A program made the translations under genes and the position numbers. Positions 26,530 to 55,016 of a DNA stretch of 64,000 nucleotides are shown here, one piece after another (position 1 is the stretch's first letter; every line of letters begins with the position of its first letter). Origin of the DNA: Escherichia coli (GTDB taxonomy: Bacteria; Pseudomonadota; Gammaproteobacteria; Enterobacterales; Enterobacteriaceae); the NCBI RefSeq assembly GCF_051903065.1, contig NZ_CP178438.1. One strand, given 5' to 3'. The notes under the pieces are model-generated. The model made no database searches and had not been told where the DNA came from. It saw nothing but the letters and a program-made list of their open reading frames with translations.

Positions 26530-26557
26530 GTATGACGAATACTTAAAATCGTCATAC
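26530..26557. promoter_or_regulatory. NikR operator upstream of nikA
   Basis: GTATGA-N16-TCATAC dyad (gtatgacgaatacttaaaatcgtcatac). Confidence 0.75.
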
Positions 26558-29113: not shown

Positions 29114-31917
<2,804 letters not shown>

Positions 31918-31949
31918 GTTATTTCTGAAACGAGGAAAGAAAAGATATT

Positions 31950-31982
31950 AACTGAACTTAATTTATAAAATTAAGTTCAGTT
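31950..31982 (-). terminator. Perfect 15-bp-stem hairpin; probable intrinsic terminator for the minus-strand hicAB-like operon
   Basis: AACTGAACTTAATTT-ATA-AAATTAAGTTCAGTT; on the minus strand it is followed by a U-rich tract. Confidence 0.5.
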
Positions 31983-32036
31983 GCATAGATAGATCCTGTA
32001 AAGGCAGATATTCTGCGTAATGTACGCCGCTAAAAT

Positions 32037-32396
32037 TTATAAATGATTCAAACGCTCATTCAGTGTTTCAATAATATAGGTATTAACAGAGACTTGTTGC
32101 TGCGCAGCCGCATTATTAAGGCGTTCACTCAGCGATTCTGGATAGCGTAACGTAAAGGTCTTAATCTTTTCTGTACGCGCATACGGCTCAATACCCGCAG
32201 CTTTACAATCCTCAAGATACTCTCGCAGGGAAAGTTCCCCTTCTTTTTGCAGCCCCTGAATGCTGTCAGAGACAAAATCACAATAACCTGACAAGCCCAG
32301 GAATTTGCCACGAAATGCATTCAGTTCTGGCACGTAAGTGATAACAGCAGGTTGCCCGGCAATCTCCATAGAGTTTGGCGTCTTCAGTTTGATCAT
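32037..32396 (-). CDS. HicB-like antitoxin (RNase-H-like N-domain plus C-terminal ribbon-helix-helix)
   Basis: 119 aa; C-terminal TFTLRYPESLSERLNNAAAQQQVSVNTYIIETLNERL resembles CopG/RHH; 4-nt overlap with upstream partner. Confidence 0.6.
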   Translation of the reverse strand: MIKLKTPNSMEIAGQPAVITYVPELNAFRGKFLGLSGYCDFVSDSIQGLQKEGELSLREYLEDCKAAGIEPYARTEKIKTFTLRYPESLSERLNNAAAQQQVSVNTYIIETLNERLNHL

Positions 32397-47417: not shown

Positions 47418-47442
47418 TCTTCCCTCCACGACGTGTTCCTGA

Positions 47443-47473
47443 ACGCCCGCATATGCGGGCGTTTTGCTTTTTG
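47443..47473 (+). terminator. Rho-independent terminator of uspA
   Basis: AACGCCCGCATATGCGGGCGTT followed by TTGCTTTTT. Confidence 0.75.
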
Positions 47474-49215: not shown

Positions 49216-49247
49216 AAAGCAGGGTAGCGTTATCGCTACCCTGCTTT
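49216..49247. terminator. Bidirectional terminator between dtpB and rsmJ
   Basis: AAAGCAGGGTAGCG-TTAT-CGCTACCCTGCTTT 14-bp stem. Confidence 0.7.
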
Positions 49248-54529: not shown

Positions 54530-54560
54530 AAGGGCTAAGAGTAGTGTGCTCTTAGCCCTT
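54530..54560. terminator. Bidirectional terminator hairpin between gor and dinQ
   Basis: AAGGGCTAAGAG-TAGTGTG-CTCTTAGCCCTT 12-bp stem. Confidence 0.6.
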
Positions 54561-54933: not shown

Positions 54934-55016
54934 GTTAGATGATGGCTATCTCACTCCAGCCAGAGCCACCAACTCAGGGCTGGAAAGTAAAAAACCGACG
55001 CAAAGTCGGTTTTTTT
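54934..55016 (+). ncRNA. agrB: agrB-like antisense sRNA regulating dinQ
   Basis: Candidate -35 TTGCAA (54899-54904) and -10 TAGCAT (54922-54927); RNA contains a 33-nt segment (54934-54966) about 90% identical to 54735-54767 inside the dinQ 5' UTR; ends at terminator ACCGAC...GTCGGTTTTTTT. Confidence 0.55.

Follow-up and report, generated by a model that had tools for sequence, protein, structure and literature searches.

Intrinsic terminators are recognized by TransTermHP as a stem of at least 4 bp enclosing a loop of 3–13 nt (as quoted in PMC12207403), and in mapped bacterial intrinsic terminators GC content peaks just ahead of the U-tract and the loop has a median length of 4 (PMC12207403). 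Stem–loops are known to protect 3′ ends in E. coli (PMC6061677). The palindrome analysed here lies at 31950–31982 of a 64-kb stretch of E. coli DNA (64,000 nucleotides; the window), between the convergent genes nikR and hicB. It resembles the intrinsic terminators of E. coli in being a stem–loop past a stop codon with a 3-nt loop and a T-rich tract on the transcribed (minus) strand, and its folding energy as an RNA hairpin (−14.5 kcal/mol on either strand) falls within the −6 to −25 kcal/mol of the window's other terminator-like hairpins. It differs from them in its unusually long (15 bp), AT-rich stem with an A–U base and in an interrupted U-tract that starts with AA.

With the bidirectional terminators of convergent genes the palindrome shares a symmetrical hairpin and an A-rich tract on one side (GAAAGAAAAGATATT), but it is A/T-tract-like on that side only; it would be at best a unidirectional terminator, because the plus-strand tail has no U-tract. 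Like the protective 3′ stem–loops of Rho-terminated or processed mRNAs it is predicted to be a stable 3′-UTR hairpin, which could block 3′–5′ exonucleases on either transcript (PMC6061677). REP/BIME elements are likewise extragenic palindromes between convergent genes. One occupies the equivalent spacer in Citrobacter, and one is inserted into the palindrome itself in the loci of DUF3829 type described below. REP elements, however, are GC-rich, imperfect (~35 bp) and present in hundreds of copies, whereas the palindrome is AT-rich, perfect and single-copy, and its classification as REP/BIME was rejected.

Structure and conservation of the palindrome

A perfect 15-bp inverted repeat with an ATA centre had been described at this position in an earlier sequence-only reading, and this was found to be exact both in the sequence and by repeat search: the 15-nt arms are 100% complementary, lie 3 nt apart and give a perfectly symmetrical element of 33 bases (AACTGAACTTAATTT-ATA-AAATTAAGTTCAGTT). 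The ORF list and Pfam agree in placing it between convergent nikR and hicB-like genes. The term 'nikR/hicB junction' used for the site in that reading holds in the sense that the palindrome lies inside the 119-bp spacer separating both genes, 32 nt past the nikR stop and 54 nt past the hicB stop, but the site is not a breakpoint. The parts of the region are as follows.

31516–31917, plus strand: nikR coding sequence, with a TGA stop in the present allele (ORF list, RefSeq annotation of the identical locus, Pfam RHH_1 and NikR_C)
31918–31949: spacer S1, from the nikR stop to the palindrome, common to window-type and DUF3829-type loci
31950–31964: left arm of the palindrome, AACTGAACTTAATTT
31965–31967: loop, ATA (AGA in DUF3829-type loci)
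31968–31982: right arm of the palindrome, AAATTAAGTTCAGTT
31983–32036: spacer S2, from the palindrome to the hicB stop, of which 31983–32025 is specific to the window locus type
32037–32396, minus strand: hicB antitoxin gene, 119 aa (PF05534)
32393–32668, minus strand: hicA toxin gene, 91 aa (PF07927)
32669–32740, minus strand: hicAB promoter/operator region, with TTGACT at 32729–32724, a 16-nt spacer and TACTAT at 32707–32702

The hicA and hicB genes overlap by 4 nt and are convergent to nikR; yhhJ and rbbA come next. The last 15 nt of S1 (31935–31949, GAAAGAAAAGATATT) read as a T-rich tail, AATATCTTTTCTTTC, on the minus strand.

The palindrome is a real, non-chance feature. It is the longest perfect inverted repeat of the 64-kb window, and in first-order Markov simulations of the window (n = 200) the longest perfect arm was at most 13, compared with 15 in the palindrome. 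As single-stranded DNA it folds with −12.8 kcal/mol (z = −7.4 versus shuffles). The GC content of the stem is 18%, with three G–C pairs among 15, and its base consists of A–U, A–U and C–G pairs. No second close copy of the half-site was found within the 64-kb window.

Other long perfect inverted repeats of the window lie at 49216–49247, 54989–55015, 47442–47463, 54530–54560 and 59979–60007. All five are GC-richer (48–67% GC) than the palindrome, and several are flanked by the A/T tracts typical of canonical, partly bidirectional terminators.

The palindrome was found in ~1,496 of 5,426 complete E. coli genomes, at one chromosomal site per genome; IAI1, O104:H4 and APEC O78 are among the strains that have this spacer. 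No real copy was present in the plasmid and phage collections, in which the two matches to E. coli 'plasmids' were to chromosome-sized records of 4.8–4.9 Mb. Among 100,044 species representatives there were two matches, both at the nikR–hicB locus, and Escherichia was the only genus in which the palindrome was found. A diverged palindrome with compensatory changes was found neither in C. freundii nor beside NikR homologues of 93–94% identity nor in other genera. One of the two species-representative matches is a 3.7-kb contig of a 'Citrobacter sp.' MAG (DXKH01000111.1), which is E. coli-like across nikE–nikR–hicBA, unlike the genuine C. freundii locus, and which matches E. coli RS571 base for base over the 119-bp spacer; for these reasons it is probably a mis-binned E. 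coli contig.

All 33 bases were identical in 1,486 of the 1,496 carriers, with one mismatch in seven and two in three. The 119-bp spacer as a whole showed at least two differences in 171 of 1,497 genomes and an identity of at least 99% in 1,325. Six distinct spacer haplotypes were compared, which differ at nine sites. None of these sites falls in the 33-bp palindrome (hypergeometric p = 0.048), and the palindrome plus the 15-nt minus-strand tail is likewise free of them (p = 0.008, post hoc), all nine being among the remaining 71 positions; seven of the nine lie in S2, and the only two in S1 (31927 and 31933) are outside the tail. This evidence of conservation is suggestive only, because sites and not independent events were counted. 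In the divergent strain E69 the palindrome is perfect and the flanks differ at three sites. Variants in other contexts have the loop AGA in place of ATA or form a G–U pair in the RNA of the minus strand; neither change abolishes the hairpin.

The nikR–yhhJ interval in E. coli

To judge from the comparison of the 5,426 complete genomes, the interval between nikR and yhhJ is a multi-state hotspot in which six or more architectures occur. The palindrome is missing from the majority of E. coli genomes, which have other arrangements here.

Empty state: nikR with a TAA stop, 8 bp, then the yhhJ stop (L001, L018)
Window type: 119-bp spacer with the palindrome, then hicBA (1,488–1,497 genomes)
PTS + hicAB type: island of GntR, PTS, FGGY-kinase, HPr and aldolase genes, then hicBA (L002)
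PTS-island type: island only, apparently without hicAB (a state deduced from two counts, the island left end in 1,638 genomes and hicAB in 2,071)
DUF3829 type: DUF3829 cassette, PTS island, then hicBA (three genomes plus L023–25 and L034)
K-12 type: rhsB element, no hicAB (L003, L014)

In the empty and PTS types nikR ends with TAA; the hicAB-only, DUF3829 and rhsB types have TGA as its stop codon, and these three all start with GAGT(C)TATT. In K-12 a different, imperfect hairpin lies at a similar distance past nikR.

As a second possibility, the earlier reading had proposed that the palindrome marks where a toxin–antitoxin module was inserted, as a site of recombination or protein binding at the module's boundary. 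The junction was aligned across genomes with and without the toxin–antitoxin pair in the set of 5,426, and the palindrome is not at the insertion edge, which refutes this boundary reading on the criterion given with it. In comparison with the empty site, the indel covers 31916–32740; its left edge (31915/31916) lies inside the nikR stop codon (TAA versus TGA), and the palindrome starts 34 bp inside this edge. Relative to the PTS + hicAB type, homology resumes only at 32026; the whole of 31916–32025, palindrome included, is therefore absent there despite the presence of hicAB. Nor can the module be regarded as freshly inserted. In C. freundii the order rbbA–yhhJ–hicA–hicB, convergent with nikR, occupies the same place, with a HicB 84% identical and a GC-rich, REP-like hicB–nikR spacer of 93 bp that is devoid of the palindrome. 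From this shared placement between nikR and yhhJ, hicAB is ancestral at the locus, an old syntenic resident, and it is the empty, rhsB and island-bearing states that are derived.

With hicAB in 2,071 and the palindrome in ~1,496 of the 5,426 genomes, subtraction leaves ~580 E. coli genomes that have hicAB without the palindrome. It was absent beside hicAB in the PTS + hicAB type, at the same locus of C. freundii and in the Serratia prophage copy examined. In L002, the one representative of the PTS + hicAB type that was examined, a canonical terminator follows hicB at once (ATAGCGGC...GCCGCTAT + ATTTTTG; −18.1 kcal/mol, tail score −3.54). Conversely, the DUF3829-type loci carry the palindrome far from hicAB. 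The palindrome is thus separable from hicAB in both directions, and its constant partner is the TGA allele of nikR together with S1 rather than hicB, since it stands far from hicAB in the DUF3829-type loci. That it is an integral part of the hicAB module was rejected, as it does not travel with hicAB everywhere. These comparisons correct the picture of the locus in that hicAB beside nikR is an old resident from which the palindrome can be separated, and for annotation they advise that spacer palindromes between nikR and yhhJ should not be taken for insertion scars.

The DUF3829-type loci (L009/L012, L023–25 and L034) begin with nikR (TGA stop) and S1, after which the left arm is broken off at 9 nt by a 162-bp REP/BIME element. 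A complete variant of the palindrome, AACTGAACTTAATTT-AGA-AAATTAAGCTCAGTT, comes next and is followed by ATTTTAATT; the DUF3829 gene (plus strand) lies 143 bp beyond, and the PTS island and finally hicBA come after it. The T-rich side of this palindrome is the plus strand (ATTTTAATT). Its single stem substitution gives a G–U pair in the minus-strand RNA and an A–C mismatch in the plus-strand RNA, weakening the plus-strand hairpin (−10.9 versus −15.7 kcal/mol); that the change favours pairing on the minus rather than the plus strand is a coin-toss observation. A third variant, in L033, has the right arm of the window and the loop AGA. The window type and the DUF3829-type loci are homologous up to precisely 31982/31983, where the palindrome has its right edge.

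The REP/BIME element within the left arm (3042–3203 of L009; also in L023–25 and L034) carries an IHF-type 'aaattcaatatattg' motif and is flanked by a 9-bp direct duplication, AACTGAACT. Descriptions of REP/BIME elements do not usually include target-site duplications. In L033 a REP/BIME element also lies directly to the left of the palindrome, without the extra AACTG.

A partial duplicate of the nikR 3′ end (4455–4481 of L009, 4051–4076 of L034) was found ~100 bp past the DUF3829 stop; it is 23–26 bp long, ends with CACGGGCATTTGCAGTGCCTGCCG and is followed by the nikR–GntR spacer of the PTS type. This duplicate places the DUF3829 cassette, including S1 and the palindrome, between direct repeats of the nikR end, as if it had inserted itself at nikR and brought along a new 3′ end for the gene. 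The DUF3829 alleles (3375–4352 of L009, 2953–3951 of L034 and 207–1190 of L033) encode proteins 61–63% identical to that of the L009 allele, and despite this divergence the ~145-bp region upstream of the gene, palindrome included, is nearly identical; the pattern suggests diversifying selection or allele replacement. Homologues of the DUF3829 protein are rare, with nine matches at E ≤ 1e-20 in a collection of 5.8 billion proteins.

Two apparent relationships of S2 were discarded. That S2 derives from the region upstream of DUF3829 in inverted form, by inversion at the palindrome, was rejected because 99 of 500 shuffles scored as well, and a 13-nt identity between S2 and the interior of nikR (31615–31627) was taken as chance (E ~0.03–0.13).

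Possible roles of the hairpin

In the best-supported reading, the palindrome would be a weak, atypical intrinsic terminator or a 3′-end protective hairpin for hicAB. We infer termination or protection from modelled folds and tail scores, and consider this reading to be evenly poised. On transcription of hicA–hicB from the minus strand, the RNA would fold into a 15-bp hairpin with a 3-nt loop 54 nt past the hicB stop, followed by AAUAUCUUUUCUUUC. The hairpin would terminate transcription independently of Rho, weakly and in an atypical manner, and would also be a barrier to 3′-exonucleases; it would set the 3′ end of the hicAB mRNA and curb antisense read-through into the convergent nikR. Read-through RNA from nikR would contain the same hairpin but not the U-tract, so that on the plus strand only 3′-end protection would be possible.

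The hairpin was present in both the minimum-energy and the centroid fold of the whole 119-nt spacer RNA of the minus strand (z = −3.5), and a terminator consensus scan gave a call at the palindrome on the minus strand only. Tail scores in the style of TransTermHP were −2.24 for the minus strand and −1.70 for the plus strand, the plus-strand tail in the window being GCATAGATAGATCCT, without a U-tract. The minus-strand tail AAUAUCUUUUCUUUC reaches −3.49 when the two terminal A–U pairs are counted as tail; it begins with AA and is interrupted, and its −2.24 is well short of the −3.5 to −5.5 of clear terminators scored in the same way. Stem length, loop and energy (15 bp, 3 nt, −14.5 kcal/mol) are those of a terminator, as is the position downstream of the last gene of the operon in the direction of transcription, but the stem is not GC-rich, and next to the U-tract its base is A–U. 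That the palindrome most likely terminates the minus-strand operon, as the sequence-only reading had put it, is the best supported of the readings, given the minus-only call, the better minus-strand tail and the invariance of hairpin and tail beside variable flanks, but with an 18% GC stem and an A–U base the terminator would be a weak and atypical one.

Apart from the palindrome, the window locus type has no hairpin with a T-rich tail past hicB. In the 3′ flanks of hicB that were examined elsewhere, a hairpin element comes directly past the stop, namely the canonical terminator of the E. coli PTS + hicAB type, a canonical terminator with a tail score of −4.76 in Serratia and GC-rich, REP-like hairpins in Citrobacter. 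Two further observations count against the transcript reading: in strains with the empty site nikR and yhhJ are only 8 bp apart and need no hairpin between them, and the DUF3829-type loci keep the palindrome though it is not in the path of any minus-strand gene. The published E. coli Term-seq set examined lists neither nikR nor rhsB in its supplements, and K-12 lacks the spacer of the window anyway.

The palindrome might instead have no selected function and be a neutral by-product of rapid spacer turnover, for example an inverted duplication or a quasi-palindrome perfected by intramolecular template switching, which we consider doubtful. Perfect symmetry can be maintained without selection by the template-switch correction of quasi-palindromes, and the apparent conservation would then stem from a young allele in which switching restores symmetry. 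The restriction to Escherichia, with a GC-rich, REP-like sequence in the syntenic spacer of C. freundii, the majority of E. coli genomes with other arrangements at the locus, the sub-standard terminator features, the low diversity over the whole 119-bp allele and the marginal palindrome-only test all agree with a neutral origin. It is opposed by the absence of variable sites from the palindrome and its tail (a post hoc comparison), by the perfect copy in E69 despite its flank differences and by the retention of the hairpin in three sequence contexts, including beside the diverged DUF3829 alleles. A different assignment, that the palindrome is primarily a plus-strand 3′ hairpin of nikR (terminator or protective stem–loop) and belongs to the nikR flank, we regard as unlikely. 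Every palindrome locus does have the TGA-stop nikR allele and S1 on its left, with hicB on the right in the window type and DUF3829 in L009, L023–25 and L034; the latter have ATTTTAATT after the palindrome on the plus strand, and the K-12 hairpin past nikR is in line with such a role. The plus-strand tail in the window, however, has no U-tract, the consensus scan made no plus-strand call, and in the DUF3829 type the 162-bp REP/BIME element separates S1 from a palindrome whose plus-strand RNA is weakened by the A–C mismatch.

A role at the level of DNA, as a protein-binding operator, a cruciform element or a recombination or insertion hotspot joining alternative cassettes, is in our estimate distinctly unlikely. 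The perfect arms and AT-rich centre would favour cruciform extrusion, the interval is variable, the REP/BIME element with its 9-bp duplication sits in the left arm in L009-like loci, and the DUF3829-type flank junction does match the right edge exactly. Against this, the element does not coincide with the junction of inserted and resident DNA at the empty site, the DUF3829 cassette is bounded instead by the duplicated nikR 3′ end, and hicAB occurs without the palindrome. There is one copy per genome and one locus among the species representatives; no second site flanks any cassette, and no recombinase or integrase gene was found between nikR and yhhJ. An Rfam 15 scan of 31400–32900 returned three chance-level matches (E >3), the one over the palindrome scoring 14.8 bits where the family's gathering score is 91. 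The single chromosomal copy, the lack of plasmid and phage copies and the null result with Rfam exclude that the palindrome is a repeated mobile element, belongs to the REP family or is one of a pair of att sites or terminal repeats. In addition, conservation at 30 of 30 stem positions fits a hairpin better than an operator, and the palindrome matches neither the NikR operator nor the HicB-operator-like repeats. The narrower proposal of a structure-prone DNA site (hairpin or cruciform) serving as a preferred rearrangement end-point in the nikR–yhhJ hotspot is given a small probability, because the homology break falls exactly at the right edge and the REP/BIME element in the left arm, and we hold it to be very unlikely.

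As a weak terminator or protective hairpin of hicAB, to return to the preferred reading, the palindrome would be ordinary, a further and rather poor case of a terminator-like hairpin, in a strain-specific spacer. If it does terminate transcription, it would be a naturally occurring terminator whose long stem is AT-rich and whose U-tract is interrupted, and as such mildly useful to terminator models.

Operators, prophage relatives and hicA

The NikR operator has the motif GTATGA-N16-TCATAC. A perfect match lies at 26530–26557 in the nikA promoter, the expected upstream position, and the motif is absent from the palindrome, which was rejected as a NikR operator. Three direct repeats of TGAWGTCATA were found at 32679–32715, in the hicA promoter (three matches versus 0.22 expected), and nowhere else in the window. 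They read TGATGTCATA, TGATGTCATA and TGAAGTCATA, are 13–14 bp apart and overlap and follow the promoter; they are likely to be the operator of the RHH protein HicB. The palindrome does not match these repeats and was also rejected as a HicB operator. The promoter scan called no promoter within the palindrome. The hicA promoter/operator region is recognisably homologous in C. freundii.

HicB homologues of 80–82% identity are carried as cargo by P2-like prophages (L029–L032; Serratia and C. koseri), in which the gpA replication gene precedes hicB and the portal gene follows it, in some cases with further small genes between. These homologues point to a phage route for the spread of the present hicAB lineage. 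In many genomes a version of the hicAB module ~14 bp shorter was found. The hicA gene is annotated as only 231 bp in L004 (1694–1924), no hicA is called in L013 (4881–5212), and some of the population may be undergoing decay of the toxin gene, with hicB and the palindrome left intact.
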